This document shows positions 31,642 to 46,208 of a stretch of DNA of 64,000 nucleotides, piece after piece. The translations under genes were made by a program, and so were the position numbers. Source of the stretch: Kiritimatiellia bacterium. GTDB taxonomy: Bacteria > Verrucomicrobiota > Kiritimatiellia > RFP12 > UBA1067. The stretch spans positions 16,488-80,487 of the forward strand of contig JAVEYH010000004.1 of assembly GCA_034003585.1 (NCBI GenBank). Reading direction: 5' to 3'. The notes beneath the pieces were generated by a model, which saw only the letters and a list, made by a program, of their open reading frames with translations, did not search any database and was not told the origin of the DNA. Each line of letters starts with the position of its first letter. Position 1 is the first letter of the stretch.

Positions 31642-33243
31642 ATGTTGCGTTCCTTCCTGGCTGGCGCCGCGTTCCTGCTGACGTGCCTTTCCGCGTCCGG
31701 AGCGGCGGCGCGGTTCACGCCCCCCCGGAACTACCCGAACATCGGGCTGGAATTGCCGGGCCTCGATGCGGCGCGGGCCGATCCCGTGCCGATGCCGCAG
31801 GCGCAGACCTTTCTGTTCGCCGGCGACGGCACGCTGTCGCGCGAAGACCGCTTTCAGCCGTTCGAACTCTGGTACGGAGCGCAGTGTTGCGCGCGGTGGC
31901 GTGATGCGGCGGGCAACCGGCTCGTCCTCGGACGCGCCACCCGCCGGTTGCCGGCTTTTGCCGAAGAGACCGTTTCGCGTGAACGCTTCGAACAGGCACT
32001 GCGGGCCGGGGCCGGCAGCGGGGAAATCCGCGACCGCGAGACGCTCAACGAATGGGTCGCGACCTTCGCGGACACCCCGGTTTACGAGCCCGAGCCTTTG
32101 CGGCTGAACGCCTTCGCGCTGGACGAGGTCCTGTTCTATCCCTGCGGGGAGGCGGAGAAACTCGTCTACGCCTTCCTTCCCCGCCGCCGGGGCGCTGCCG
32201 CCCGGCCCGACTGGTTCTGCGTCACGTTCCACGCGCCCGGCGCGACTGACCCCAACGCGCTGCGCGAGCACTTCGAGGCGGCGTTCCTCTGTTCAATCAG
32301 CCAGCCCTCGCGCGCGGAGGCGGACCAGGGGCCACAGGCGGAAGAACTGGAGATCCGCGGCCCCGAGGGCGCGCGCCTCCCTGACCTGACGGACCATCCC
32401 GTGCGCCGCGAGGCGCGCAAGAGCGTGGAGAATTACGGCGACTGGTGGTTCGCGGAGACCGGGGACGCCATGATCCTGTCCGATGCCGACACCGATCTCG
32501 GCAAGCGCCTGATCCAGACGCTGCAGGAGACGCTCCCCCCGCTGCGGCAGGCGTTCGCCCAACTGGTGCCGCCCCTCACGCGCGACCGCGACATCGCCCT
32601 GCTGCGCCTCTTCCAGCGGCGTCCCGACTACGCGCACTACACCGGTCCGGCGTACGCGTGGACCGGCGGCATGTGGATGCCCGGACGGCGCGAGCTGGTG
32701 TTGCCGCTGGACGCCGACCCCCAAGCCATCCTGCGCACGGTGCGGCACGAGTCCTTTCACCAGTACCTCTCGTTCGCCTACGGCATGGTGCCCGCCGCGC
32801 CCTGGTTCAATGAGGGCCACGCCTGTTTTTTCGAGAACGCCCGCACGGATGCGGAGGGGCGCGTGATCCTCGATGAGGACACCGACCGCGTCTTCCTGCT
32901 GCTGGACCATCTCGATACGGCGCTCACCCTCCTGCCCCACCTGCTGCACGCCTCCTACGAGGAGTTCTACGCCGGTCTCAGCACCGGCCGCCGCCTGAAG
33001 TACGCCATGGCGTGGGCTCTGGTCTACTACCTGCAGAAGGGCGCGCCGACCGAACGCAACACGCCCTTTCAGCAGATCCTGCCGGCGTATGCCGACGCGC
33101 TGGCGCGCGAGCTGGACGGCGCGAAGGCCACCGAGGCGGCTTTCGCCGGAGTGGATATGGCCGTTTTCCTCGACACCTTCCGCGAGTTCTGGTTGAAACG
33201 GCGCGGCACCGCCATGCGCTACGACCCGCTGCAACAACGTTGA
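31642..33243 (+). CDS. Secreted putative gluzincin metallopeptidase (HExxH…NEG motif, M1-like minimal core)
   Basis: ATG 31642. Signal peptide MLRSFLAGAAFLLTCLSASGAAA. HESFHQYLSFAYGMVPAAPWFNEGHA has the same spacing as the M1 HExxH-(x)18-E signature (HELAHQWFGN…WLNEGFA). Confidence 0.5.
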   Translation: MLRSFLAGAAFLLTCLSASGAAARFTPPRNYPNIGLELPGLDAARADPVPMPQAQTFLFAGDGTLSREDRFQPFELWYGAQCCARWRDAAGNRLVLGRATRRLPAFAEETVSRERFEQALRAGAGSGEIRDRETLNEWVATFADTPVYEPEPLRLNAFALDEVLFYPCGEAEKLVYAFLPRRRGAAARPDWFCVTFHAPGATDPNALREHFEAAFLCSISQPSRAEADQGPQAEELEIRGPEGARLPDLTDHPVRREARKSVENYGDWWFAETGDAMILSDADTDLGKRLIQTLQETLPPLRQAFAQLVPPLTRDRDIALLRLFQRRPDYAHYTGPAYAWTGGMWMPGRRELVLPLDADPQAILRTVRHESFHQYLSFAYGMVPAAPWFNEGHACFFENARTDAEGRVILDEDTDRVFLLLDHLDTALTLLPHLLHASYEEFYAGLSTGRRLKYAMAWALVYYLQKGAPTERNTPFQQILPAYADALARELDGAKATEAAFAGVDMAVFLDTFREFWLKRRGTAMRYDPLQQR

Positions 33244-33362
33244 GATTTTCATTTGCGCGGCCCGGCGGCCATCCGCTATCATACCCCCATTCATCAACGG
33301 TTCCGGCGTGACGGCCGCCCGCATGCGCGCGGGATCCGGCACGGCCACCCAAGGAGGACATC

Positions 33363-33533
33363 ATGGCTTATCAGATCACAGACAAGTGCGTGGCGTGCGG
33401 ACTCTGCAAAGACGCGTGCCCGGTGGAGGCGATCAGCGAAGGCGCCCCGATCTACACGATCGACGCCGACAAGTGCATCGACTGCGGCGCCTGCGCGGGC
33501 GAGTGCCCGAACGAGGCGATCATCGCGGGCTGA
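33363..33533 (+). CDS. 2[4Fe-4S] ferredoxin, 56 aa (not in ORF track)
   Basis: AAGGAGGA SD 6 nt before ATG 33363. Translation MAYQITDKCVACGLCKDACPVEAISEGAPIYTIDADKCIDCGACAGECPNEAIIAG has two CxxCxxCxxxCP motifs. TGA at 33531-33533. Confidence 0.8.
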   Translation: MAYQITDKCVACGLCKDACPVEAISEGAPIYTIDADKCIDCGACAGECPNEAIIAG

Positions 33534-33565
33534 TTTCCGCGCGGATTGGGTCGGACAACAAGGGC

Positions 33566-33600
33566 GGCAGGTCTATCCTGCCGTCTTTTTTTTCGTTTTT
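33566..33600 (+). terminator. Rho-independent terminator after the ferredoxin gene
   Basis: Stem CGGCAGG(33566-33572)/CCTGCCG(33578-33584), loop TCTAT, followed by tcttttttttcgttttt. Confidence 0.6.
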
Positions 33601-33677
33601 TCCGGGGTTCCTCCGCGGGGTTTCCCCTTGAACCGGAGGGAACGACACGCTACGCTATCGGCCATCGGGTCTTCGTT

Positions 33678-35165
33678 ATGCGGTACGCGATCGTTTCCGA
33701 CATCCACGCGAATTTCACGGCCTGGCGGACCGTGCTGGCCGACATCGCCGACATCCGGGCGGATCAGATCATCTGCCTCGGCGACGTGGTGGGGTATGGC
33801 CCGCAGCCTGTGGCCGTGCTGGAGTCGGTTTACCGGACCGTGCATGTGACGCTGATGGGCAACCACGACGCGGCGGTCTGCGGCCGGCTGGATCCCGGGC
33901 TGTTCCAGCCGCATGCCCGCGCCGCCGTGCTGCGCCACCGCGCGCAACTTTCCGCCGCGGGCATCGCGTGGCTCGAACGGCTCCCGCTGGTCCTGACCGC
34001 GCCGGAGTTCCGTTGCGCGCATGGGGACTTCTCCAACCCGCCCGCCTTTTACTACATCCTCGACGAGCAGGACGCGTGCCCGTCGTGGCAGGCCACGCGG
34101 GAACCGCTGCTCTTCGCGGGACACACCCATCTGCCGGGCATCCATGTCAGCGGACCGAGCGGGCGGGCCCATTTTTTGGAACCCCGCGACTTCACGCTCG
34201 AACCGGGAAAACGGTATATCGTCAATCCGGGCAGTGTGGGGTATCCGCGAACAGGGCCGTTCCGTTCCTCCTACTGCCTGTACGACGATCAGGCCGGGAC
34301 CGTCGTGTTCCGCCAGCTCCCGTTCGACGATGAGGCCTACCGCGCGGCCCTGCGCGAGGCGGGCCTGGAAGGCGCGCCATGGCTGGAGCGGTTGGCGTTG
34401 CGCCGTCACCGTCCCGCGGTCCGCGCGCGGCTCTCCTTCGCGAACCCGGTCACGGCGAGCCAATCGGGGCGACTGTCCGCGTGCCGTCGCGGTGCGGCGG
34501 CACGGGCCGCGCGCCGCCTCGCGTTCGGTCTTCTGGTGTTCGGGGCCGCGGGAACCGGGGGCCGCCTCGCCTTCCGTGCCGGACACTCCGCGGCCGAAGC
34601 CCCCCCCATGATGCCGGACTTCGAGCTGCCGGTACGGGCCGCCGAGCCCCTGATGTTCTCCGGAGAGAACCTGCTGCCGCCGTTGCCGGAGTCCATCGCC
34701 CCGGACCGACGGCTCGACGGGTGGCGCTACGCCTTGGAGGAGCGCGGCCGGCAGACGCTTGCCCTCGGACTGCGCGACGGCGGGCTCACGCTGGTGGTGC
34801 GGCATGACGGCACCCGGCGTTTCCAGTTGGAATCCCCGCTGATCGATCTGGCGGGGACCCGGATCACGGCTGTGCGCCTGGCCGCGCGCGTGCGGAAACC
34901 CGGGCCGTTCGCGGGGTCCGCCACCGTCCAACTGGTCACCTACACCCGTCTGCCGCATGACCTGCTGCAGCGGGGCCGCACCGAACAGTACGAGTTGCGC
35001 ACCGCGCGGCGCCGACTCGCGCCGCCCGGGGCCGAACGCAATGTGCGGATCCGGCTCGGCCGCGCCGTCACACATGTGCGTTTCCGTGTGGAGGCCACCT
35101 TCGACGGGGTTCTGGAAATCGAACAGCCCTCCCTTCGCGCGGAACCGGAAGGACACACACCATGA
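33678..35165 (+). CDS. PPP-family (ApaH/PrpE-like) metallophosphoesterase with C-terminal TM segment and ~250-aa domain of unknown function
   Basis: ATG 33678. Motifs SDIHAN, GDVVGYGPQP and GNHD, in the same order as the ApaH GDxHG/GDxVxRG/GNHD(E) motifs. Hydrophobic segment LAFGLLVFGAAGTGG. The beta-rich C-terminal region has no recognisable motif. Confidence 0.65.
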   Translation: MRYAIVSDIHANFTAWRTVLADIADIRADQIICLGDVVGYGPQPVAVLESVYRTVHVTLMGNHDAAVCGRLDPGLFQPHARAAVLRHRAQLSAAGIAWLERLPLVLTAPEFRCAHGDFSNPPAFYYILDEQDACPSWQATREPLLFAGHTHLPGIHVSGPSGRAHFLEPRDFTLEPGKRYIVNPGSVGYPRTGPFRSSYCLYDDQAGTVVFRQLPFDDEAYRAALREAGLEGAPWLERLALRRHRPAVRARLSFANPVTASQSGRLSACRRGAAARAARRLAFGLLVFGAAGTGGRLAFRAGHSAAEAPPMMPDFELPVRAAEPLMFSGENLLPPLPESIAPDRRLDGWRYALEERGRQTLALGLRDGGLTLVVRHDGTRRFQLESPLIDLAGTRITAVRLAARVRKPGPFAGSATVQLVTYTRLPHDLLQRGRTEQYELRTARRRLAPPGAERNVRIRLGRAVTHVRFRVEATFDGVLEIEQPSLRAEPEGHTP

Positions 35166-36025
35166 TTGAACGCATTCCCGACGAAGTCTGGGCCTTTGAC
35201 TGTGAATGGGTGCCGGATCTGCAGGCGGGCCGCCTGCTGTACCGCCTGCCGGAGGAGCTGCCCTCCCGGGAAGTGCTGCGCGTCATGTGGGAACAGGGCG
35301 GCGCGACAGCGGAAAATCCGACCCCGTTTCTGAAAACGATCCTCTGCCGCGTGGTTTCGGTGGCCACGGTGATCCGGCGCGTATCCCGCAAGGGCGAGGT
35401 GCGGCTCTTTCTGCAGGCCCTGCCCGAAGCGCCCGATGATCCGGCGCAAGATGAGGCCCACATCCTGCGGCGGTTTCTGGTGGACGGCGTGGCGGCGCGC
35501 AATCCGCAACTGGTGGGCTTCAATTCGCGCAACGCCGACCTGCGCATTCTCACGCAGCGCGCGTTCGTCCACGGTCTGCCCCAACCGGCACTCTGCGGCC
35601 GTCTGGCGGCGAAGCCGTGGGAGAGCCTGGATGTGGACCTCATGGAGCGGATCAGCGGATTCGGCAAGACCTATGCGGTCTCGCTGAACGAACTGGCCAC
35701 GCTGTCCGGCATTCCGGGCAAGCTGGACACCTGCGGCGATGACGTGTGCGGCCTCTGGTACAGCGGCCAGCGGAAAAGAATCGTGGAGTACAATTGCCTC
35801 GACGCCCTCACCACCTATCTGGTGTGGCTGCGCATGGCCTATTTCTCGGGGTGTTTCGACGCCGAAGGCTACCGCGCCGAACAAAGCCGCCTGCACGCGC
35901 TGATCCGGGAACGCCTGCTCAACCCGGAAGACGCCTACCTGCGCGCGTACCTCGACGCGTGGCGCGATCTGAAACGCCGCACCGGCCAGTTGGACGACGG
36001 CGTCTTCCCGCCCGACGATCAGTGA
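35162..36025 (+). CDS. DEDDy-type 3'-5' exonuclease (RNase-H-like, PolB-exonuclease-related)
   Basis: ATGA overlap with the upstream gene. Exo I motif WAFDCEWVPD, Exo II GFNSRNADLRIL, Exo III YNCLDALTTYLVWL (YxxxD). Confidence 0.6.
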   Translation: MIERIPDEVWAFDCEWVPDLQAGRLLYRLPEELPSREVLRVMWEQGGATAENPTPFLKTILCRVVSVATVIRRVSRKGEVRLFLQALPEAPDDPAQDEAHILRRFLVDGVAARNPQLVGFNSRNADLRILTQRAFVHGLPQPALCGRLAAKPWESLDVDLMERISGFGKTYAVSLNELATLSGIPGKLDTCGDDVCGLWYSGQRKRIVEYNCLDALTTYLVWLRMAYFSGCFDAEGYRAEQSRLHALIRERLLNPEDAYLRAYLDAWRDLKRRTGQLDDGVFPPDDQ

Positions 36026-36798
36026 ACGCCGCGTTTGCTGGCCTGGAAGAACTCGACCAGCGTCCGGATCTCCGGCAGATCCGTTACCTCATATTTGATC
36101 CGCTCCAGCGCCTGACTGCGGTTGAGGCCCTCACGGTAGAGCAGCTTGTACGCCTCTTTCAGCGCGGCACGCACCTCGGCCGGAAAGCCCCGGCGCTGCA
36201 ACCCCACGATGTTCGGGCCGATTACGCGCACCTCAGCGCCCACATTGTCCGTCACCATGAACGGCGGGCAGTCCTGGCGGATTTTGGTGGCGCCGCCGAT
36301 CATGGCGTGCGTGCCGATGCGGCAGAACTGATGAATCCCGGTCATCCCGGAGATGACCGCGAAATCTTCCACCGTCACCTCGCCGGCCAGCGTCGCGACA
36401 TTGGACATGATCACGTGATGCCCCACGACGCAGCCGTGCGCGATATGGCAGTAGGCCATGATCAGGCAGTGACTGCCGATCCGCGTCACCTCGCCCGGTT
36501 TGGTCCCGAGATGCACGGTCGAGAATTCACGCAACACCGTTCCGTCGCCCACCTCAACGTAGGTGACATCCCCCTCCTGGTACTTCAGATCCTGCGTTTT
36601 CATGCCGACGCAGGCGAAGGGGAAGATTTGGCAGCCCTTGCCCAGCGTGGTGTGCCCCACCACATGCGCGTGCGCCTGCAGCACCGTGCCGGCCCCGATC
36701 CGGACATCCGGCCCCACCATCGCATAGGGTCCGACCTCCACATCGCTGTCGAGTTCGGCCCGGGGGTCCACAATCGCTGTCGGGTGAATGTTCGCCAT
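36019..36798 (-). CDS. lpxA: Acyl-[ACP]--UDP-N-acetylglucosamine O-acyltransferase
   Basis: ATG 36798 with GGAGGAA SD. Hexapeptide-repeat left-handed beta-helix (MANIHPTAIVDP…IGAGTVLQAHAHVVGHTTLG…). C-terminal helical domain typical of LpxA. Confidence 0.9.
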   Translation of the reverse strand: MANIHPTAIVDPRAELDSDVEVGPYAMVGPDVRIGAGTVLQAHAHVVGHTTLGKGCQIFPFACVGMKTQDLKYQEGDVTYVEVGDGTVLREFSTVHLGTKPGEVTRIGSHCLIMAYCHIAHGCVVGHHVIMSNVATLAGEVTVEDFAVISGMTGIHQFCRIGTHAMIGGATKIRQDCPPFMVTDNVGAEVRVIGPNIVGLQRRGFPAEVRAALKEAYKLLYREGLNRSQALERIKYEVTDLPEIRTLVEFFQASKRGVH

Positions 36799-38007: not shown

Positions 38008-39279
38008 TTACGGGTTCACATACTTGACCTTGTCGGCGTTGGTGCCCGCGCCGCGGATGTAGATCTCCACGCGACGGTTCTCGGGATTCCCGTTGACCAG
38101 GTCGGGCTGGACCTTGGGCCGGCTGTAGCCGTACCCCACGGCGCTCAGGCGCGACGCGGTCACGCCCTTGCCCGCCATATAGGACTGCACCGCCTGGGCC
38201 CGGCGCTCGGAGAGATCCTGATTGTACTTCTCGCTCGAACGCGTCCGGCGGTCCGCATGGCCCTCGATCACCGCCGTGGCCTGCGGGTTACGCTGCAACA
38301 CGCGCACGACCTGATCGATGTCCTTGAAGTATTCGGGCTTGATCACCGTGGTGTCATAATCGAACTGGATGTAGACCTCGAACAGCATCAGGTCATCGGA
38401 GGGATCCAACGGGTTGGTCTTGTCCTCGATCACCTCGTGCCCGTCCGCCACGCCGCCCTTGTCGGTGTCGCGGTCCAGCGGGCTGGTCTTGTGGGTGAAC
38501 ACCTCGGCCCCGTCCTTGAGCCCGTCGAAATCGGTGTCCGGATTGAGCGGGTTGGTTTTGTAGACCTTGACCTCATCGCCGTCCGTCAGCCCGTCGCCGT
38601 CGGTGTCTTTGTTGAAGGGGTCGGTCCCGAGCTTCGCCTCCTCTTCGTCGGTCAGCCCGTCGCCGTCCGAATCCTTGGGCAGGGCCGCAACCGCCGCCGC
38701 GCCCTCGCTGACACGGCTGTCGCGGCTACCGCCGAAACGGTAAACCACCCCGGCATCCACCGTGTACTGCATCTCATGCCGCTTATCGACCGACATCAGT
38801 GCCCGGCTGTCAGCCCGGAGAGAGAAGTTGTCGGTCAGATGATACATGGCACCCAGGCCAATCCGCGGCCCCGTCAGAGTAGAGCGGTCCCCCTCTTCAA
38901 ACACATTGCGGTCCGCCATATACACGGCCCAACCTGCCGAAAGGAACGGGTCGAATCGGCTGTACCGGTCGAAATGATACAGCGCATCAACCCCCAACCC
39001 GTACATGCGCTGCTTTTTCTGCGTCCAGCGCTCGTTGTTGGTCATGTTGGGCGCGAAAGACGCCTCCGTCTCCACCGACCAGTGGTCGGTGAGATCGTAA
39101 CCGAGACGCAGGTTGAGATTCAACCCCTCGTCAATCGCCTGATTCCCCTCAGGGAAAATCATTCCGATCCCGGGATTGACATACCAGCGGGGCGCATCGA
39201 CCAGCTCATCGGCCTTCACCTGCGAACACAAGATCCCAGCGGCCGCAACCGCTGAAAGTATCAGTCTTGATGTGCTCAT
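38008..39279 (-). CDS. OmpA-family outer-membrane protein with N-terminal beta-barrel, thrombospondin-type-3 Ca-binding repeats and C-terminal OmpA peptidoglycan-binding domain (copy A)
   Basis: AAGGAGGAATCGG SD. Signal peptide MSTSRLILSAVAAAGILCSQVKA. TSP3 repeats DSDGDGLTDEEEAKLGTDPFNKDTDGDGLTDGDEV…NPDTDFDGLKDGAEV. OmpA domain …EGHADRRTRSSEKYNQDLSERRAQAV…. Confidence 0.85.
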   Translation of the reverse strand: MSTSRLILSAVAAAGILCSQVKADELVDAPRWYVNPGIGMIFPEGNQAIDEGLNLNLRLGYDLTDHWSVETEASFAPNMTNNERWTQKKQRMYGLGVDALYHFDRYSRFDPFLSAGWAVYMADRNVFEEGDRSTLTGPRIGLGAMYHLTDNFSLRADSRALMSVDKRHEMQYTVDAGVVYRFGGSRDSRVSEGAAAVAALPKDSDGDGLTDEEEAKLGTDPFNKDTDGDGLTDGDEVKVYKTNPLNPDTDFDGLKDGAEVFTHKTSPLDRDTDKGGVADGHEVIEDKTNPLDPSDDLMLFEVYIQFDYDTTVIKPEYFKDIDQVVRVLQRNPQATAVIEGHADRRTRSSEKYNQDLSERRAQAVQSYMAGKGVTASRLSAVGYGYSRPKVQPDLVNGNPENRRVEIYIRGAGTNADKVKYVNP

Positions 39280-39429: not shown

Positions 39430-40990
39430 GGGCGCTGTTATATAACAAAAAGGGCCGCAGAAGAAACGGCGGTTTCTCTGCGGCCTTCCGATCGCGACGT
39501 TCCCGCGTGCGGCGGAAGCGTTACGGGGTCACATACTTGACCTTGTCCGCGTTGGTGCCCGCGCCGCGGATGTAGATCTCCACACGGCGGTTCTCGGGGT
39601 TCCCGTTGACCAGATCGGGCTGGACCTTGGGACGGCTGTAGCCGTACCCCACCGCGCTCAGGCGCGACGGGGTCACGCCCTTGCCCGCCATGTAGGACTG
39701 CACCGCCTGGGCCCGGCGCTCGGAGAGATCCTGATTGTACTTCTCGCTCGAACGCGTCCGGCGGTCCGCATGGCCCTCGATCACCGCCGTGGCCTGCGGG
39801 TTGCGCTGCAGCACGCGCACGACCTGGTCGATGTCCTTGAAGTATTCGGGCTTGACCACCGTGGTGTCATAATCGAACTGGATGTAGACCTCGAACAGCA
39901 TCAGGTCGTCGGAGGGGTCCAGCGGGTTGGTCTTGTCCTCGATCACCTCGTGCCCGTCCGCCACGCCGCCCTTGTCGGTGTCGCGGTCCAGCGGGTTGGT
40001 CTTGTAGGTGAACACCTCGGCCCCGTCCTTGAGCCCGTCGAAATCGGTGTCCGGATTGAGCGGGTTGGTCTTGTAGACGTTGACCTCATCGCCATCCGTC
40101 AACCCGTCGCCGTCGGTGTCCTTGTTGAAGGGGTCGGTCCCCCGTTTCGCCTCCTCGTCGTCGGTCAGCCCGTCGCCGTCCGAGTCCTTGGGCAGGGCCG
40201 CCACCGCCGCGGCGCTCGCCGCCGCCGCACCCGCCGCGCCGCCGCCGAAGCGGTAAGCGACGCCGGCATCCGCCGTGTAGATGAATTCGCAGGTCTGATC
40301 CAGCGCCATGAAGGCCCGCGTATCCGCACGCAGCGACCAGCGGTCATTCAGGTGATACATGAGGCCCGCGCCCAGGCGCGGGCCGACCACGCTGTACTCG
40401 CTGCCTTCGCAGAACACATTGTCATTCGCGCGATAATAACCGAAACCGGCGGCCAGATAGGGGTCGAGCCGGTTATACCGGTCGAAGTGGTACAGCCCGT
40501 CCACAAACAGGCCGCGCACACTCTGTCCGCCGAGCCCGTCCTCCGAACCGGAGGAACCCACGCCGGGCCACCAGCATCCGTCTCTGCATCCTCCGTCCCA
40601 ACCGCCTCCCGCGCCGCCGTCATCCCGTCCGTCCCGCCCGTTGCTGGTGATGTTGGGCGCCCAGGAGACCCCGCCTTCAACCGACCAGTGCTCGGACAGA
40701 TCATACCCCAACCGCAACAGCAGGTTCAGACCCTCATCCACCGGCTGGTTGCCCTCGAAGAACATCATGCCGACACCCGGGCTCACATACCAGCGGGGCG
40801 CATCGGTCCACTCCTCGGCCTTCCCCTGTGAACACGCGATCCCAACGGCCGCAACCGTTGAAAGCATCCGTCTTGCTTTGCTCATCCGATTCCTCCTTCA
40901 TGTTCTAAGGTCATGGCTACTTTACCGGAATCGGAAGCGCGACGCAACAAGAACCGGATTACATGACATTTTTTTAAGATTGCGCCCATG
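39385..40990. repeat. Tandem duplication unit B (paralogous copy; contains a decayed lptF/G 5' fragment at 39367..39429 on the minus strand)
   Basis: Minus-strand fragment ATGAAGATTCTGGAGCGATGTGTG…TAA encodes MKILERCVVQAVVDAAWAQS*, against MKILERYVLQAFLGAFVLAW in the intact gene. The terminator hairpin copy is at 39447..39490. Confidence 0.7.
39521..40885 (-). CDS. OmpA-family outer-membrane protein with TSP3 repeats (copy B; carries an extra Gly/Asp-rich insertion)
   Basis: Signal peptide MSKARRMLSTVAAVGIACSQGKA. Insertion NITSNGRDGRDDGGAGGGWDGGCRDGCWWPGVGSSGSEDGLGG is absent from copy A. The TSP3 and OmpA domains are near-identical to copy A. Confidence 0.85.
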   Translation of the reverse strand: MSKARRMLSTVAAVGIACSQGKAEEWTDAPRWYVSPGVGMMFFEGNQPVDEGLNLLLRLGYDLSEHWSVEGGVSWAPNITSNGRDGRDDGGAGGGWDGGCRDGCWWPGVGSSGSEDGLGGQSVRGLFVDGLYHFDRYNRLDPYLAAGFGYYRANDNVFCEGSEYSVVGPRLGAGLMYHLNDRWSLRADTRAFMALDQTCEFIYTADAGVAYRFGGGAAGAAAASAAAVAALPKDSDGDGLTDDEEAKRGTDPFNKDTDGDGLTDGDEVNVYKTNPLNPDTDFDGLKDGAEVFTYKTNPLDRDTDKGGVADGHEVIEDKTNPLDPSDDLMLFEVYIQFDYDTTVVKPEYFKDIDQVVRVLQRNPQATAVIEGHADRRTRSSEKYNQDLSERRAQAVQSYMAGKGVTPSRLSAVGYGYSRPKVQPDLVNGNPENRRVEIYIRGAGTNADKVKYVTP

Positions 40991-41230: not shown

Positions 41231-42940
41231 TCAGAAGTCCCAAACCCGTTCGGCGGGCTTTTTCGCAGACGCGAAGGCACAGACGGCCCGACCTCCGGCG
41301 CTCAGAACGGCCTGCCCGTCTCCCGTGGTCAGACGCAGGGGGCCGCACCCCCGGTGGCGCAGCACAGCAGCCGTCAACAGTGCCTTTTCCAACCCGTCCC
41401 CGCGCCGGTAGTTCCACACCTCATCGGGTTGCGCGAGCCGCGCGGCCCCGTCGTAGATGGAGTCCCCGGGCCAGGCGGCGAGCCGCGCGACCAGTTCGCT
41501 TTCCGACAGTCCTGCGGCACCCGTCAGGCTCACCGGGTTCCGCTCCAGCGCGGCCTTGACAAACGGGGCGTACGGCGTGCGGGTCAGGTCGCGCCAGACG
41601 TAAAAGGCCAGATCGGCGGCGGGGTTGACCTCCCGCAAAGCCTCCACCCGCGCAATCACCTCCCCGCGCGTCAGATCCACCGGCAGCAGAACCGGCGGCG
41701 GGCCGTTCTCAAACGTCACGCCCGCGGCATCCGGCAACCGCGGCGCCGTGTGGCAAAAACGCTTCAACTGCTCGACCATGTCGGCCGCGCTCATGCAGGC
41801 GTCGCCGATGGCGTCGCGCAGCGCCTGCAGGTCTTCGGGCCGGTCCAGATCGATGGCGCGCTCGCGCACAAACGCCTCGATGTCGTTCAGCACGATCTTA
41901 CACGGGCAGCACGAGGCCGCAAAGGTCTCCATCGGGATCATGGCCAGCAATTTATCGCGCGTGGCGTCCGTGACCTTGTACGGGCACTCCTGCTCAAACC
42001 GGAAGGCCTGCTCCAGCGCCAGATAGCGATTCACCCCGTGAACCGGCCAGCGCACCACGAAACACTGCCGGCACTGCGGATCCTGCCGCAGGAAATTACC
42101 CAGAATCTCCGGCGTGAGCGGAGTCTTCAGATACGCGCGCAACCCGGCGGCGAACCGCCCGTACGCTTCGGACGCGATCGTGGCGCGCGGGTAGAGCATG
42201 TGGATCCAGCCCGTGGAGTGCGAGACGATCGTCACCCGTTCGTTCTCCAGCGCCCGGCGCGCCTGGCCCGAAATCTGGGTGCCGTTGAACCACATCGCTT
42301 TGGTCACCAGCCGCCGGTTGTTGATGAGCACGCCGTCGTCCACCTCCACGAAATTCTGGGAGTGCAGGGGCGTGGCCATCAGAAACACCTTCTCCAGCGG
42401 CAGGCCCGCCACCACATACAGCGCCGCGGCGTAGAGCGCGGCCAGCGAGACACACTCGCCCGCACCGGTGGCGTACCCCTCACGGTACCGGAACGCGTCC
42501 ATGGCCTCGATCGTCTCGGTCTTCCAGTAGGGGATCACCTCCGAGGCGTATTTGTCCAGGCCGAAATGGGTGCGGATGTCGATGTCGAAGTAGTAGGTGT
42601 CGCCCTGATAGCCGAACAGCGCGTTGGACTGCGCGATCACCTCGGGCGCGAGGAACCCGGCGAACCGATCGAGCTCGCGGCGCTGATCGGTCAGCCCCCA
42701 CGTCTCCAAATCCAGATTGAACACGTAGTGGTCCATGATGTACTGCTTCAGGCGCAGCAGCCTGCGGTAGGGCTTCATCTTGCGGATCCCCTTGAACCAA
42801 GGATCCTCGCGCCACTGCCAGAGGCGCGGCGACATGATGTTCGCCAGCACCAGGCTGTACATCAGCTCCGGAAAAACGAAAATCTCCATGTCGGACAACG
42901 TGACGGCCGACGAATACCGCTCCAGTTCCTCCCGGGTCAT
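41231..42940 (-). CDS. Hypothetical protein co-transcribed with lnt (possible transglutaminase-like/papain-fold Cys-His-Asp hydrolase; tentative)
   Basis: ATG 42940 (MTREELERYSSAVTL…) overlaps the lnt stop (ATGA). Motif YATGAGECVSLAALYAAALYVVAG. No signal peptide. The track ORF start at 43279 lies in the Gly/Arg-rich antisense of lnt and is rejected. Confidence 0.5.
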   Translation of the reverse strand: MTREELERYSSAVTLSDMEIFVFPELMYSLVLANIMSPRLWQWREDPWFKGIRKMKPYRRLLRLKQYIMDHYVFNLDLETWGLTDQRRELDRFAGFLAPEVIAQSNALFGYQGDTYYFDIDIRTHFGLDKYASEVIPYWKTETIEAMDAFRYREGYATGAGECVSLAALYAAALYVVAGLPLEKVFLMATPLHSQNFVEVDDGVLINNRRLVTKAMWFNGTQISGQARRALENERVTIVSHSTGWIHMLYPRATIASEAYGRFAAGLRAYLKTPLTPEILGNFLRQDPQCRQCFVVRWPVHGVNRYLALEQAFRFEQECPYKVTDATRDKLLAMIPMETFAASCCPCKIVLNDIEAFVRERAIDLDRPEDLQALRDAIGDACMSAADMVEQLKRFCHTAPRLPDAAGVTFENGPPPVLLPVDLTRGEVIARVEALREVNPAADLAFYVWRDLTRTPYAPFVKAALERNPVSLTGAAGLSESELVARLAAWPGDSIYDGAARLAQPDEVWNYRRGDGLEKALLTAAVLRHRGCGPLRLTTGDGQAVLSAGGRAVCAFASAKKPAERVWDF

Positions 42941-44637
42941 CCCGCATCCCCCTCTCCCCGGCGCGCGCGCCGGTCCCGCACGGCCCCGGCCGCGAGCAGC
43001 ATCGCGAACACGGCCGCGCCGGGCATCCCCAACATCCAATCCCCCCACACCGTATAGGGCGCGCGCAACGGAACCTCCGGCACCGTCACGGGCGTCACCA
43101 GGAACCCGTCGAAATCCGCGACCGCGCCGCCGGATTCCAGCCGTTTGACGCGCCCCACCGCATCCACCGCGCACGACACGCCGGAATTCGCGGCCCGCAC
43201 CAGCGGCACCCCGTTCTCCACGGCGCGGAACACCGCCTGCTGCTGGTGCTGCAACGGCTCGACCGACCCGCTGAACCACGCGTCGTTGGTCATCAGCACC
43301 AGCAGCCGCGCGCCCGCGCGCACCGCCTCCCGGCTCAACGAGGGAACCGTGTCCTCAAAACAGATCAGCGGGCCCAGACTCAGGGTCCGGCCCGCGGCCC
43401 GCGCCACATGCAGGGGCCCCGGCCCGCGGCCCGGCGTGCAGCTCACGCCGGTCGGCGCGAAACGCTGCAGCCACGGGACGAACTTATCGCCGGGGATATA
43501 TTCGCCGAACGGAACCAGATGCCGCTTGCGGTAACGCCCCAACGTCTCGCCGGTCGCGGAAACAAGCCAAGCGGCGTTATAATAGCGGCATCCTTCAGGC
43601 GCCACGCGCGAAACCTTGACGTGCTCGATCTCCAGCGCGCCGGTCAGCAGCGGGGCGCCGGCCGCCGCCGCACCCTCCCGGATCACACGCATCGTATCGG
43701 CGTCGTAAGGCACGGAGCCCATGACCGCGGTCTCGGGCCAGACCACCAGATCCGGCTTGGCCGCGCCCACGAGGCGGGACTGGCTGACCAGCCGTTCCCA
43801 CTGCGTCCGCACCGTTTCGTCGTTGACCGTAAAAATGCAGGGCGCGTTCGGCTGGATCAGCGCGATCCGGCACACGCCGCTTTGCCGCGCCTCCCGGTCC
43901 CACGCGCGGACCCGCCCCATGCCCCAGAACCACACGGCGAGCACCGCAACCAGCGGCAGGAAGGTCTCGGCCGAACGCGCCAGCCTCCCCGCCCAACCGC
44001 ACACCGGACCGGCCGTCGGCGGAAGCGGACGGCACCGCGCGATGAACGGTTCCGCCACCCGTTCCAGCAGGCTCGCCACCGCGCCGTTACCCATCACGAG
44101 CAGCGCGGATACTCCGTAGACGCCCGTGACCGACGCCACCTGGATCAGGGCCGTGTTGTCCACCTGGCTGACCCCCAGAAAGTTCCAGGCGAAGCCGGAG
44201 AGCAACCGTCCCCGCGCAACCTCGGCCCCGACCCACAACAGGGGATCGAGCACCGCCACCGCCGCCACGCGCCGCCATCCCGGAATCTGCCCTGCCCAAC
44301 CCCAGACGCGGGCCGAGGCCGATCCGGTCACAGCCAGGAACAGCGCGCACCAGGCCGCCAGCGCCCCCTGTCCCAGCAGCACCAGAAACCACGGGCCGTT
44401 GTTGCGGATGATCGCCGGGAACCAACTCAACGTCAGAAGCCAGAAGAGCATCCCGCACAGCCACGACCAGCCGAACGCCTCACGCGGCCGGCTCCGACGG
44501 ATCACCAGAAACAGCGGGGCCAGCGCCATCCACATGCCTTCCGCCTGCGCCTGCGGCGGAAACGCCGCCCACATCAGCAGGCCGCTCGTGCCCGCCGCCG
44601 CCCCCTTGACCCACCCCGTCCTCAATCGTGCTGTCAC
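42937..44637 (-). CDS. lnt: Apolipoprotein N-acyltransferase
   Basis: GTG start at 44637. N-terminal membrane helices (…AFPPQAQAEGMWMALAPLFLV…) align with the E. coli Lnt N-terminus. C-terminal CN-hydrolase domain with WPE, RKRHLVPFGEYIP and ICFE motifs. Confidence 0.85.
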   Translation of the reverse strand: MTARLRTGWVKGAAAGTSGLLMWAAFPPQAQAEGMWMALAPLFLVIRRSRPREAFGWSWLCGMLFWLLTLSWFPAIIRNNGPWFLVLLGQGALAAWCALFLAVTGSASARVWGWAGQIPGWRRVAAVAVLDPLLWVGAEVARGRLLSGFAWNFLGVSQVDNTALIQVASVTGVYGVSALLVMGNGAVASLLERVAEPFIARCRPLPPTAGPVCGWAGRLARSAETFLPLVAVLAVWFWGMGRVRAWDREARQSGVCRIALIQPNAPCIFTVNDETVRTQWERLVSQSRLVGAAKPDLVVWPETAVMGSVPYDADTMRVIREGAAAAGAPLLTGALEIEHVKVSRVAPEGCRYYNAAWLVSATGETLGRYRKRHLVPFGEYIPGDKFVPWLQRFAPTGVSCTPGRGPGPLHVARAAGRTLSLGPLICFEDTVPSLSREAVRAGARLLVLMTNDAWFSGSVEPLQHQQQAVFRAVENGVPLVRAANSGVSCAVDAVGRVKRLESGGAVADFDGFLVTPVTVPEVPLRAPYTVWGDWMLGMPGAAVFAMLLAAGAVRDRRARRGEGDAG

Positions 44638-44646
44638 CCTCAGTCC

Positions 44647-45171
44647 CTACACCTTCTTGTACGCGCACCAGACAAACGACACGATCGCCGCGCCCCAGAG
44701 CACCGCGACACAGTACCACGGCGACAGGCCCGTCACCTGCGGCAGGGTCAGCGGCCCGCGATCAAACCACGCCAGCACGCTCGCCCTGAGCCAGGGCTCG
44801 GCCTCGGCATAGAGCGCCGCGCCCGCGAGCATGCCCGCGAGCACAAACAGCGCGTGCCACCGCCCCTCCGCCACCGCGCCCACCGCGGTACCCGGGCAGA
44901 GCCCCGCATACGCCCACCCCGCGCCGAACAACAGCCCCCCGACGATCACGCCCGCGTGCAGCGGCCGGGGACTCATCGTGATCCGCCCCGCCTCCGCCAA
45001 CAGTTGCAGCCCCACGCTGCCCACCAGAATCGCCGAGAACAGGAATTTCACGACCGTCATGTCACGAAACAGCAGGGCGCCGACCTGCCTGTCGAAGCGC
45101 AGCACCCCGGCCTTCTGCATCAGGAAGCCGAACAGGCACCCGGTCACCAGCCCCAAAAGCGGCTCACTCAT
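44647..45171 (-). CDS. YeeE/YedE-family (putative sulfur-compound/thiosulfate transporter) membrane protein, half-size subunit
   Basis: Four TM helices. Conserved Cys motif AYAGLCPG. 8-nt overlap with the upstream half gene. Confidence 0.65.
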   Translation of the reverse strand: MSEPLLGLVTGCLFGFLMQKAGVLRFDRQVGALLFRDMTVVKFLFSAILVGSVGLQLLAEAGRITMSPRPLHAGVIVGGLLFGAGWAYAGLCPGTAVGAVAEGRWHALFVLAGMLAGAALYAEAEPWLRASVLAWFDRGPLTLPQVTGLSPWYCVAVLWGAAIVSFVWCAYKKV

Positions 45172-45712
45172 ACACATCCCCCCGCTTGCCGATCGACCGG
45201 GCGAGCACCGCCCCGCCCATGAAAAAACAGGCCATCCCGACCAGACCGCTCACCGAAAGCTGCATCACCCCGCTGAGCCCGAGCCCGCTCGGGCACCCCC
45301 CGGCCAGCCGCGCCCCGAACAAAGCCACCGCCCCGCCCAGAAACCCGCCCGCCGCGCGCTTCGCCACATTCGGTCCGAAACGCTTGCGCCAGCGTTCCGG
45401 CACCCATTCGGATTCGAAGGTGCGGCCGCCCAACGCCGCGATCAGGGCACCCAGGGCGATCCCGCACACCAAACCGGCCTGCCAGTCCCAGACGCCTTTG
45501 TGCTTTTTCAGGTAATCGTTCCGGGCCGCGTGCTCCGGGATGATCCGCCGCTCGATTTCCGCCGCGGCCCGCACAACCGTGGTGGAGGTTCCGAAATATA
45601 CGGTGCGTCCCGTGACTCGTGTCGTGGCGTACGCCGACGCGATCGCGAGCAGGCCGGTCAGCGCGCCCGTCAGATAGGGATTCCAGCGGCGCTCCCGTTT
45701 TTTGCCGATCAT
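45164..45712 (-). CDS. YeeE/YedE-family membrane protein, half-size subunit
   Basis: ATG 45712 with GGGAAAGGAG SD (MIGKKRERRWNPYLTGALTGLLAIASAYA…). Conserved Cys motif LAGGCPSG. The track ORF start at 46063 is rejected because it reads through the divergent panD promoter region. Confidence 0.6.
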   Translation of the reverse strand: MIGKKRERRWNPYLTGALTGLLAIASAYATTRVTGRTVYFGTSTTVVRAAAEIERRIIPEHAARNDYLKKHKGVWDWQAGLVCGIALGALIAALGGRTFESEWVPERWRKRFGPNVAKRAAGGFLGGAVALFGARLAGGCPSGLGLSGVMQLSVSGLVGMACFFMGGAVLARSIGKRGDVYE

Positions 45713-45848
45713 TCCGTCTCCTTTCCCGCGTCCGGACTGCACGAAGTTAAGCATAACACGCCCCGGGAGACGGGTCAACGGCGCGCGAATCCGCACTTGC
45801 ATAATCCGGTACGCCCGCTTATCCTGTGCCGCGCTTGAAGGGAATCCC

Positions 45849-46208
45849 ATGTACTGCACGCTGCTGAAAGCCAAACTGCACCACCTCCGGGTGACGCAGG
45901 CGGATAAGGAGTACGAGGGCAGCCTGACGATCGACGAGGATCTGATGGACGCCGTCGGCATCCTGAATTTCGAAAAACTGCTGGTCGCCAATCTCGACAA
46001 CGGCGAGCGGTTCGAGACGTATGCCATCCGCGGCCCGCGCGGCAGCGGCGTGGCATGCCTCAACGGCGCGGCTTCCTATAAGGGCCAGATCGGCGACCGC
46101 CTGATCGTGATGGTGTGGTGCCTGCTGGACGACGCCGGGCGCGCGGCGCACCACCCCCGGATCGTGCGCCTCGACGAACGCAACCGCATCGTGGCCGCCG
46201 CCGTCTGA
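45849..46208 (+). CDS. panD: Aspartate 1-decarboxylase
   Basis: MYCTLLKAKLHHLRVTQADKEYEGSLTIDEDLMDAVGILNFEKLLVANLDNGERFETYAI… is collinear with E. coli PanD, including the G-S pro-enzyme cleavage site region (YEGSLTID). Confidence 0.9.
   Translation: MYCTLLKAKLHHLRVTQADKEYEGSLTIDEDLMDAVGILNFEKLLVANLDNGERFETYAIRGPRGSGVACLNGAASYKGQIGDRLIVMVWCLLDDAGRAAHHPRIVRLDERNRIVAAAV

Follow-up and report, generated by a model that had tools for sequence, protein, structure and literature searches.

Organization of the Locus

Two overlapping genes on the forward strand, termed gene A and gene B, were analyzed in a 64,000-nucleotide stretch of DNA from a Kiritimatiellia bacterium (GenBank assembly GCA_034003585.1, contig JAVEYH010000004.1, positions 16,488 to 80,487), which is referred to below as the window and from whose first letter the coordinates of the locus are counted. 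Gene A codes for a metallophosphoesterase joined through a transmembrane helix to a β-sandwich domain that is predicted to lie in the periplasm, and gene B for a predicted PolB-like 3'-5' exonuclease. The features of the locus are collected in Table 1.

Table 1. Features of the gene A-gene B locus in window coordinates
Feature	Coordinates	Strand	Description and basis
Gene A	33678..35165	+	495-amino acid bitopic membrane metallophosphoesterase; open reading frame from ATG 33678 to stop 35165; AlphaFold2 mean pLDDT 85
Gene A, residues 1-243	33678..34406	+	Binuclear metallophosphoesterase domain; D8xH10, GD36, GN62H63D, H115, GH149xH151; probably cytoplasmic
Gene A, residues ~280-302	34515..34583	+	Transmembrane helix following an Arg-rich linker (residues 244-279); AlphaFold2 helix 279-302
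Gene A, residues 311-490	34608..35147	+	β-Jelly-roll of carbohydrate-binding module type, probably periplasmic; conserved NLLP and GWRY motifs, P337 and W349 invariant
Coupling junction	35147..35165	+	GGAAGGA 35147-35153, 8-nt spacer, ATGA 35162-35165; read from the sequence
Gene B	35162..36025	+	287-amino acid PF10108/COG3298 PolB-like DEDDy 3'-5' exonuclease (predicted); Pfam E 6e-46
Gene B tail RTGQxxDGVF, T274-F282	35981-36007	+	Conserved in the exonucleases of the paired clade
Ferredoxin gene (33363-33533) and terminator-like hairpin/T-run (33560-33598)	33363..33598	+	Open reading frame; Pfam Fer4
lpxA, convergent	36019..36798	-	Open reading frame; Pfam Acetyltransf_11 and Hexapep

Both are real genes. 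Homologues of each number in the hundreds, so the pair is not a chance arrangement of open reading frames, and the stop codon of gene A overlaps the start codon of gene B (junction text ...GGAAGGACACACACC ATG A...). The start of gene A is placed as in Table 1 and not at an upstream TTG (33546) because all 54 aligned homologues open at the same MRYAIVSD. The ATGA overlap described in an earlier note on this DNA is thus read directly at the junction, and together with the Shine-Dalgarno-like motif 8 nt 5' of the gene B ATG it predicts that the genes are co-transcribed and, as that note had proposed, translationally coupled.

The transcription unit is bounded on its 5' side by the gene for a 56-amino acid ferredoxin with two [4Fe-4S] clusters and by the terminator-like hairpin that follows it, with 12 pairs and then a run of T, and on its 3' side by the convergent lpxA. 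The stop of lpxA overlaps that of gene B by 7 nt (36019-36025), which leaves no space for separate terminators. With the ferredoxin and hairpin upstream and lpxA facing it downstream, the A-B pair is a two-gene operon. Beyond lpxA lie lptF/G and then two ompA-type genes. The G+C content of the window is ~66% with no compositional break at the A-B locus, and the window holds no paralogue of gene A, of gene B, or of the C-terminal domain of gene A. An Rfam search of positions 33000-36500 gave no family at threshold, the sole sub-threshold match falling on the terminator hairpin, and so placed no riboswitch or other RNA element 5' of the operon in that interval. A sigma-70 promoter scan returned zero sites, such a scan being uninformative for this phylum.

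Phosphoesterase Domain of Gene A

The N-terminal domain of gene A is by its motifs and profile matches a member of the calcineurin-like metallophosphoesterase superfamily with its catalytic residues intact. Residues 1-203 match the Pfam families Metallophos_2 (57.3 bits, cut-off 27) and Metallophos (50.5 bits, cut-off 21.5), and the motifs SDIHAN (Asp-8 and His-10), GDVVGYGP (Asp-36), and GNHD (Asn-62 to Asp-64) are all present. Asp-8, His-10, Asp-36, Asn-62, His-63, His-115, His-149, and His-151 are invariant across the 54 homologues of gene A.

The closest solved structure is 3RQZ, a metallophosphoesterase of Sphaerobacter thermophilus deposited without an assigned function, which is matched by the family profile of gene A (3rqz_A, E 5e-50, residues 1-233) and ranks first in a Foldseek search with the AlphaFold2 model of gene A (36% identity, TM-score normalized to the target 0.83-0.86). 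It is followed by SapH/Spr1479 of Streptococcus pneumoniae (3QFM, 22% identity, TM-score 0.69-0.70), labeled by its Protein Data Bank (PDB) depositors as an asymmetric Ap4A hydrolase and phosphodiesterase, and then by two Pyrococcus hypothetical proteins. Much weaker matches are found to ApaH, lambda phosphatase, PP1, and calcineurin, that to Escherichia coli ApaH (9ojd) having an E value of 8.6e-6 and a TM-score of 0.41.

The core had been described earlier as ApaH-like, and of this description the calcineurin-like domain with its three motifs stands whereas the ApaH label is too specific. The ApaH equivalog PRK00166, whose cut-off is 176, reaches 27.2 bits and covers residues 3-67 only. The NCBIfam equivalogs all score far under their cut-offs, and gene A is therefore not an ApaH. 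A YfcE-type phosphodiesterase was rejected (PRK09453, 41.9 bits against 117; TIGR00040, 29.1 bits against 56.25), as was PrpA/B, for which NCBIfam scores are ~15 bits against cut-offs of ~330. A parallel to PolB and its B-subunit of metallophosphoesterase fold (PolD DP1-like) was also considered and set aside, the nearest relatives of gene A being SapH and 3RQZ and its product being a membrane protein.

Transmembrane Helix and C-Terminal Domain of Gene A

C-terminal to the phosphoesterase domain, the AlphaFold2 model shows a low-confidence linker of ~35 amino acids (244-279), the transmembrane helix, and a β-sandwich of ~180 amino acids (311-490). The membrane-spanning segment recognized in the earlier note is therefore present, and it forms the only strongly hydrophobic stretch of gene A, conserved as such in the 54 homologues (mean Kyte-Doolittle value 2.3). 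The ~250-amino acid domain that the note placed after it is β-rich as described, and it is not one domain of that length, since the region is made up of the linker, the helix, and the shorter sandwich.

An excess of Lys and Arg on the N-terminal flank of the helix occurs in 47 of the 54 homologues. Gene A has no signal peptide, because it lacks a hydrophobic segment at the N terminus and the protein opens with a catalytic β-strand, and the flank charges combined with the missing signal peptide indicate an N-in/C-out topology. The phosphoesterase domain would thus be placed at the cytoplasmic face of the inner membrane with the jelly-roll in the periplasm.

In the model residues 311-490 have the β-sandwich jelly-roll fold of carbohydrate-binding modules (CBMs) of families 4, 16, 22, 61, and 70. 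The structural matches, to hyaluronan-binding CBM70 and to CBM16, CBM61, CBM4, and CBM22, are at 5-15% identity, and the domain matches no Pfam or CBM sequence family; no Pfam domain was matched anywhere in residues 244-495.

Exonuclease of Gene B

Gene B is a typical member of PF10108 and is predicted to be a soluble and catalytically intact PolB-like DEDDy 3'-5' exonuclease, in agreement with the stand-alone enzyme with DxE and YxxxD motifs recognized earlier. PF10108 (DNA_pol_B_exo2, cut-off 24) matches residues 55-267 with 157.2 bits. The three exonuclease motifs are D13xE15 (ExoI), N121xxxxD126 (ExoII), and Y210xxxD214 (ExoIII), and an alignment of 51 diverse homologues shows conservation of 90% or more for Asp-13, Glu-15, Asp-126, and Asp-214. 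The sole fully invariant residue in these 51 PF10108 proteins is Glu-98 (window positions 35453-35455), which is not part of the canonical DEDDy motifs and has a Glu as its aligned counterpart in the archaeal PolB exonuclease domain. The family profile of gene B matches residues 182-322 of the Deep Vent/Pfu-type archaeal family-B polymerases with an E value of 7e-13, and Pol epsilon with 1e-6.

A housekeeping RNase had been named in the earlier note, beside a canonical ApaH, as an identity that would speak against its proposal. Gene B is not an RNase D or RNase T orthologue because PF10108 is its only family match, with Pfam at E ≤ 0.1 giving this family alone and NCBIfam giving nothing; neither gene thus proved to be the housekeeping enzyme named. 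In the RNase H-like classification PF10108/COG3298 is a cluster of predicted exonucleases beside PolB (PMC3985635), and no biochemical role has been defined for the family (PMC3985635, PMC4611032). Experimental work on PF10108 was found in the literature only for Cj1132c/WlaX of Campylobacter jejuni, which was recovered in a DNA-bait pull-down and whose deletion lowered spontaneous mutation to ciprofloxacin resistance (PMC4611032). The 10 longer PF10108 proteins (367-511 amino acids) that were searched for fusions carry no second Pfam domain, and orthologues ~50% identical to gene B stand alone across many phyla with no conserved partner.

Conservation of the Pairing

The genomic context was compared in a set of genomes, one per species, scanned with an alignment of 12 closer exonucleases, from which the best 80 of at least 571 matching loci were taken (loci are numbered with the prefix L); the set is accordingly biased towards relatives of gene B. 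Pairing was scored by tblastn with the N- and C-terminal domains of gene A and by inspection of open reading frames. Both proteins have many homologues in metagenome-assembled genomes (MAGs) of Kiritimatiellia. In 35 loci the exonuclease shares ~60% or more identity with gene B, and in 33 of them, all but L033 and L034, it is directly preceded by gene A on the same strand. The two genes overlap by the 4 nt of ATGA in 19 cases, by 8 nt in 5, and by 1 nt in 1, whereas they stand 2-36 nt apart in 7 and are separated by 113 and 214 nt in 2. A neighbor-joining tree of the 80 exonucleases places the paired loci in one clade with L033 and L034 nested inside it.

Gene B is 60-91% identical across the paired clade, as in core genes, and gene A itself diverges to ~41% identity. 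The genes downstream of the pair are lpxA-lptF/G-ompA in 18 of the 33 loci, dxs in 6, and the NQR operon in L001. With gene A diverging this far while the downstream genes change, the pair outlasts the surrounding synteny. At least 24 of the 33 paired loci have the ferredoxin (75-96% identity) upstream of gene A, whereas no unpaired exonuclease and no unpaired gene A has it as a neighbor. Because it tracks the paired loci only, the conserved block may be written as ferredoxin/A-B, with the terminator-like hairpin still separating ferredoxin from gene A in the window.

The C-terminal tail of gene B follows the linkage. Its DGVF extension is lacking in all 45 unpaired orthologues, and the whole RTGQxxDGVF tail is also lacking in a rumen sub-clade (L033, L034, L036, and L037) in which gene A has been lost from two members and, in the other two, 25 nt separate the genes in place of an overlap. 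The tail could serve as a docking peptide for gene A; the match between tail and linkage, with a single gain and a single loss behind it, counts as weak evidence.

Stand-alone gene A proteins outside the paired clade have the same architecture, with the N-terminal domain 51-58% and the C-terminal domain 25-31% identical. In L004 (4797-12158) a GH2 glycoside hydrolase gene lies 24 nt upstream of gene A and a gene for a GGDEF-REC-HD-GYP protein comes next on the same strand, in L085-L087 gene A is followed by a GH95 gene (L085 8276-10615; L087 7614-9953), and in L088 and L089 it lies beside a large DUF5122 protein. The assemblies with the stand-alone genes of L004 and L088 also hold unlinked exonucleases (L046 and L053). 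The glycoside hydrolase neighbors may reflect chance in genomes rich in such enzymes, or a connection to glycans or c-di-GMP.

A separate arrangement is seen in a sister Kiritimatiellia clade (L039, L040, L044, L047, L056, L058, L064, and L080), where a protein of ~350 amino acids is encoded ~18 nt upstream of the exonuclease on the same strand. Judged by eye, its sequence resembles kinases of the aminoglycoside-phosphotransferase fold.

Other Features of the Window

The two ompA-type genes (38008-39279 and 39521-40885, reverse strand) are tandem paralogues coding for outer-membrane proteins in which an OMP β-barrel is combined with an OmpA domain and bacterial TSP3 repeats. The two are near-identical in their C-terminal halves, the second has a Gly/Trp/Cys-rich insertion in the barrel, and similar short open reading frames occur in the upstream regions of both. 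Downstream of them on the reverse strand (41231-43279) is a large conserved protein of ~570-680 amino acids with no Pfam match (cluster c9, e.g. L019 10542-12254), which is syntenic in 14 paired loci. Strand asymmetry in the window peaks at 44001-46000, with a GC skew of -0.19 and an AT skew of +0.24.

Proposed Function and Alternatives

The reading we prefer, tentatively and with rather less than even confidence, is that genes A and B form a lineage-specific chromosomal operon with products that cooperate at the inner membrane, on nucleotides or on the 3' ends of nucleic acids. Both enzymes would act on a shared nucleic-acid or nucleotide pool at the cytoplasmic face of the membrane, where the phosphoesterase of gene A would hydrolyze a phosphate ester or anhydride beyond the reach of a DEDD exonuclease; candidate substrates are a 3'-phosphate or 2',3'-cyclic-phosphate end, an NpnN, or a di- or oligonucleotide. 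The exonuclease of gene B would then trim the resulting 3'-OH ends to mononucleotides, and the periplasmic glycan-binding-like domain would localize or regulate the phosphoesterase. The functional link between the two genes is here an inference. The DNA pull-down with Cj1132c speaks for a DNA role of the family of gene B (PMC4611032).

Several observations weigh against joint action. The periplasmic CBM-like domain is hard to tie to DNA or RNA end processing, and neither gene A nor 3RQZ nor any PF10108 protein has a substrate on record. The linkage of A and B arose once and was lost once, in a single Kiritimatiellia clade, and since the paired loci form that single clade the 33 genomes amount to about one event. 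The 45 other loci (exonuclease 46-55% identical), which come from other Kiritimatiellia and from MAGs labeled Gammaproteobacteria, Deltaproteobacteria, Holophagae, Pirellulales, Chthonomonas, Magnetococcales, Entotheonella, and Thermoanaerobaculia, have no same-strand metallophosphoesterase within 6 kb, as confirmed with a hidden Markov model of the N-terminal domain of gene A, and L082 is the only one of them with a gene A nearby, 2.6 kb off and on the opposite strand. The linkage, whose conservation across genomes the earlier note had proposed to check, thus holds among the close relatives but is absent from every other lineage carrying either gene. The sister-lineage assemblies CAYQJG01 and JBAWXQ01 hold both genes unlinked, and unlinked gene A adjoins glycoside hydrolases and the GGDEF/HD-GYP regulator and no nucleic-acid enzymes.

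The main rival, a historical operon, which we consider quite possible while also placing it short of an even chance, holds that A and B are unrelated core genes of the Kiritimatiellia that became adjacent once and were kept together by inheritance and convenience of co-expression. Gene A would then be a glycan-responsive membrane phosphoesterase or signaling enzyme and gene B a general DNA-maintenance exonuclease. Besides the single origin and the two assemblies with separate genes, the GH2, GH95, and GGDEF-REC-HD-GYP neighbors of unlinked gene A fit such a division of roles, as do the orthologues of gene B in Gammaproteobacteria, Deltaproteobacteria, Holophagae, Pirellulales, Magnetococcales, and others, which remain ~50% identical without gene A. 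The rival accounts less readily for a pair with usually overlapping codons that was kept in 33 of 35 genomes despite changed flanks and the divergence of gene A, or for a clade-specific tail in gene B that tracks the linkage. If the link is merely historical, the locus is an ordinary lineage-specific operon.

The outer sensor-like domain, transmembrane helix, and cytoplasmic phosphoesterase of gene A give it the layout of a receptor, and its nearest characterized relative, SapH, was deposited as an Ap4A hydrolase and phosphodiesterase; with the GGDEF-REC-HD-GYP protein adjoining gene A in L004, these points lend themselves to a role in the degradation of a second messenger. On that account a periplasmic CBM-like glycan sensor would control a cytoplasmic phosphodiesterase that opens or cleaves Ap4A or a cyclic di- or oligonucleotide, and the exonuclease would finish the linear product, comparable with GdpP/PgpH or an EAL phosphodiesterase followed by Orn. 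We regard it as unlikely: no messenger synthase occurs in the operon or in its neighborhood in the window, no riboswitch precedes the operon, gene B is PolB-like DEDDy and not Orn-like DEDDh with a family member, Cj1132c, that binds DNA, and gene B is widespread without gene A. An envelope enzyme is very unlikely. Gene A would here act on a membrane-bound pyrophosphate substrate, as does a UDP-2,3-diacylglucosamine hydrolase of the LpxH/LpxG type, and gene B would be unrelated. LpxH and LpxG are calcineurin-like phosphoesterases, the predicted topology tethers the domain of gene A at the cytoplasmic face of the membrane, and lpxA, lptF/G, and ompA lie directly downstream in 18 of the 33 paired loci. 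However, lpxA runs convergent to the operon without being co-transcribed, 15 of the 33 paired loci lack it, unlinked gene A is not near lpx genes, NCBIfam at E ≤ 0.1 gave no match to LpxH or any other Lpx model, and no LpxH structure is among the top 50 Foldseek matches in the PDB. An anti-phage or conflict system of an undescribed type, with a phosphoesterase and a nuclease effector, is scarcely credible and was rejected. Pairs of a phosphoesterase and a nuclease recur among defense systems, and this generic recurrence is the sole support. Neither protein has a match in PADLOC-DB 2.0 at E ≤ 0.01, which bears out the statement of the earlier note that the pair corresponds to no named system. 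The framing of that note in terms of defense and nucleotide signals found no support, as the neighbors are of a housekeeping kind (ferredoxin, lpxA, lptF/G, ompA, dxs, and the NQR operon) and copies of the exonuclease, 26-33% identical, turn up in only 3 of 50,697 phage and 15 of 72,556 plasmid records, several of these "plasmids" being as large as chromosomes. The syntenic position, normal G+C content, vertical inheritance within the clade, and core-gene-like conservation of gene B argue in the same direction.

Significance

Both catalytic families are already known and annotated but have hardly been characterized by experiment. PF10108/COG3298 is conserved at ~50% identity over many bacterial phyla, and a stable coupled partner is one of few contextual clues to it. 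For gene A, no characterized example of a SapH/3RQZ-like phosphoesterase joined through a transmembrane helix to a periplasmic CBM-like domain was found, and the architecture is conserved across Kiritimatiellia. The Kiritimatiellia are specialist degraders of complex glycans, and gene A could link glycan availability to cytoplasmic nucleotide chemistry in this group. The fullest version of such a link, which we consider improbable, is that gene A is a new transmembrane receptor enzyme in which the periplasmic glycan-binding jelly-roll controls the cytoplasmic metallophosphodiesterase, with gene B docked via its RTGQxxDGVF tail, so that the complex would couple periplasmic polysaccharide sensing to the turnover of a nucleotide messenger or of 3' ends. 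If this were true it would provide the first defined pathway for the widespread PF10108 exonucleases.

Comparison with Known Systems

Neither the architecture of gene A nor its coupling to a PF10108 exonuclease is described in the literature searched, in which no paper linking Kiritimatiellae with metallophosphoesterases was found. 3RQZ and SapH share with gene A the fold and all metal-ligand motifs, but they are soluble proteins of ~250 amino acids to which gene A adds the linker, the transmembrane helix, and the predicted periplasmic CBM-like domain. ApaH resembles gene A in the GDxxxxGP and GNHD motifs within the N-terminal ~67 residues and differs in length and architecture. The CBM-like jelly-roll of gene A is attached not to a glycoside hydrolase or lyase but, via a transmembrane helix, to a phosphoesterase predicted to be cytoplasmic. 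Compared with a typical PF10108 protein, gene B has the clade-specific tail and the coupling to a metallophosphoesterase, both of which occur only in its own clade.

A functional analogy is provided by GdpP or PgpH acting with a nanoRNase or Orn, in which a membrane or extracytoplasmic sensor on a cytoplasmic phosphodiesterase is likewise combined with a separate exonuclease for the linear products. Orn is the DEDD exonuclease that completes the degradation of c-di-GMP. The likeness is one of function only, as the catalytic domain of GdpP is of the DHH/DHHA1 type and that of PgpH is an HD domain in place of the calcineurin-like domain of gene A, and Orn is a DEDDh enzyme whereas gene B is of the DEDDy type.

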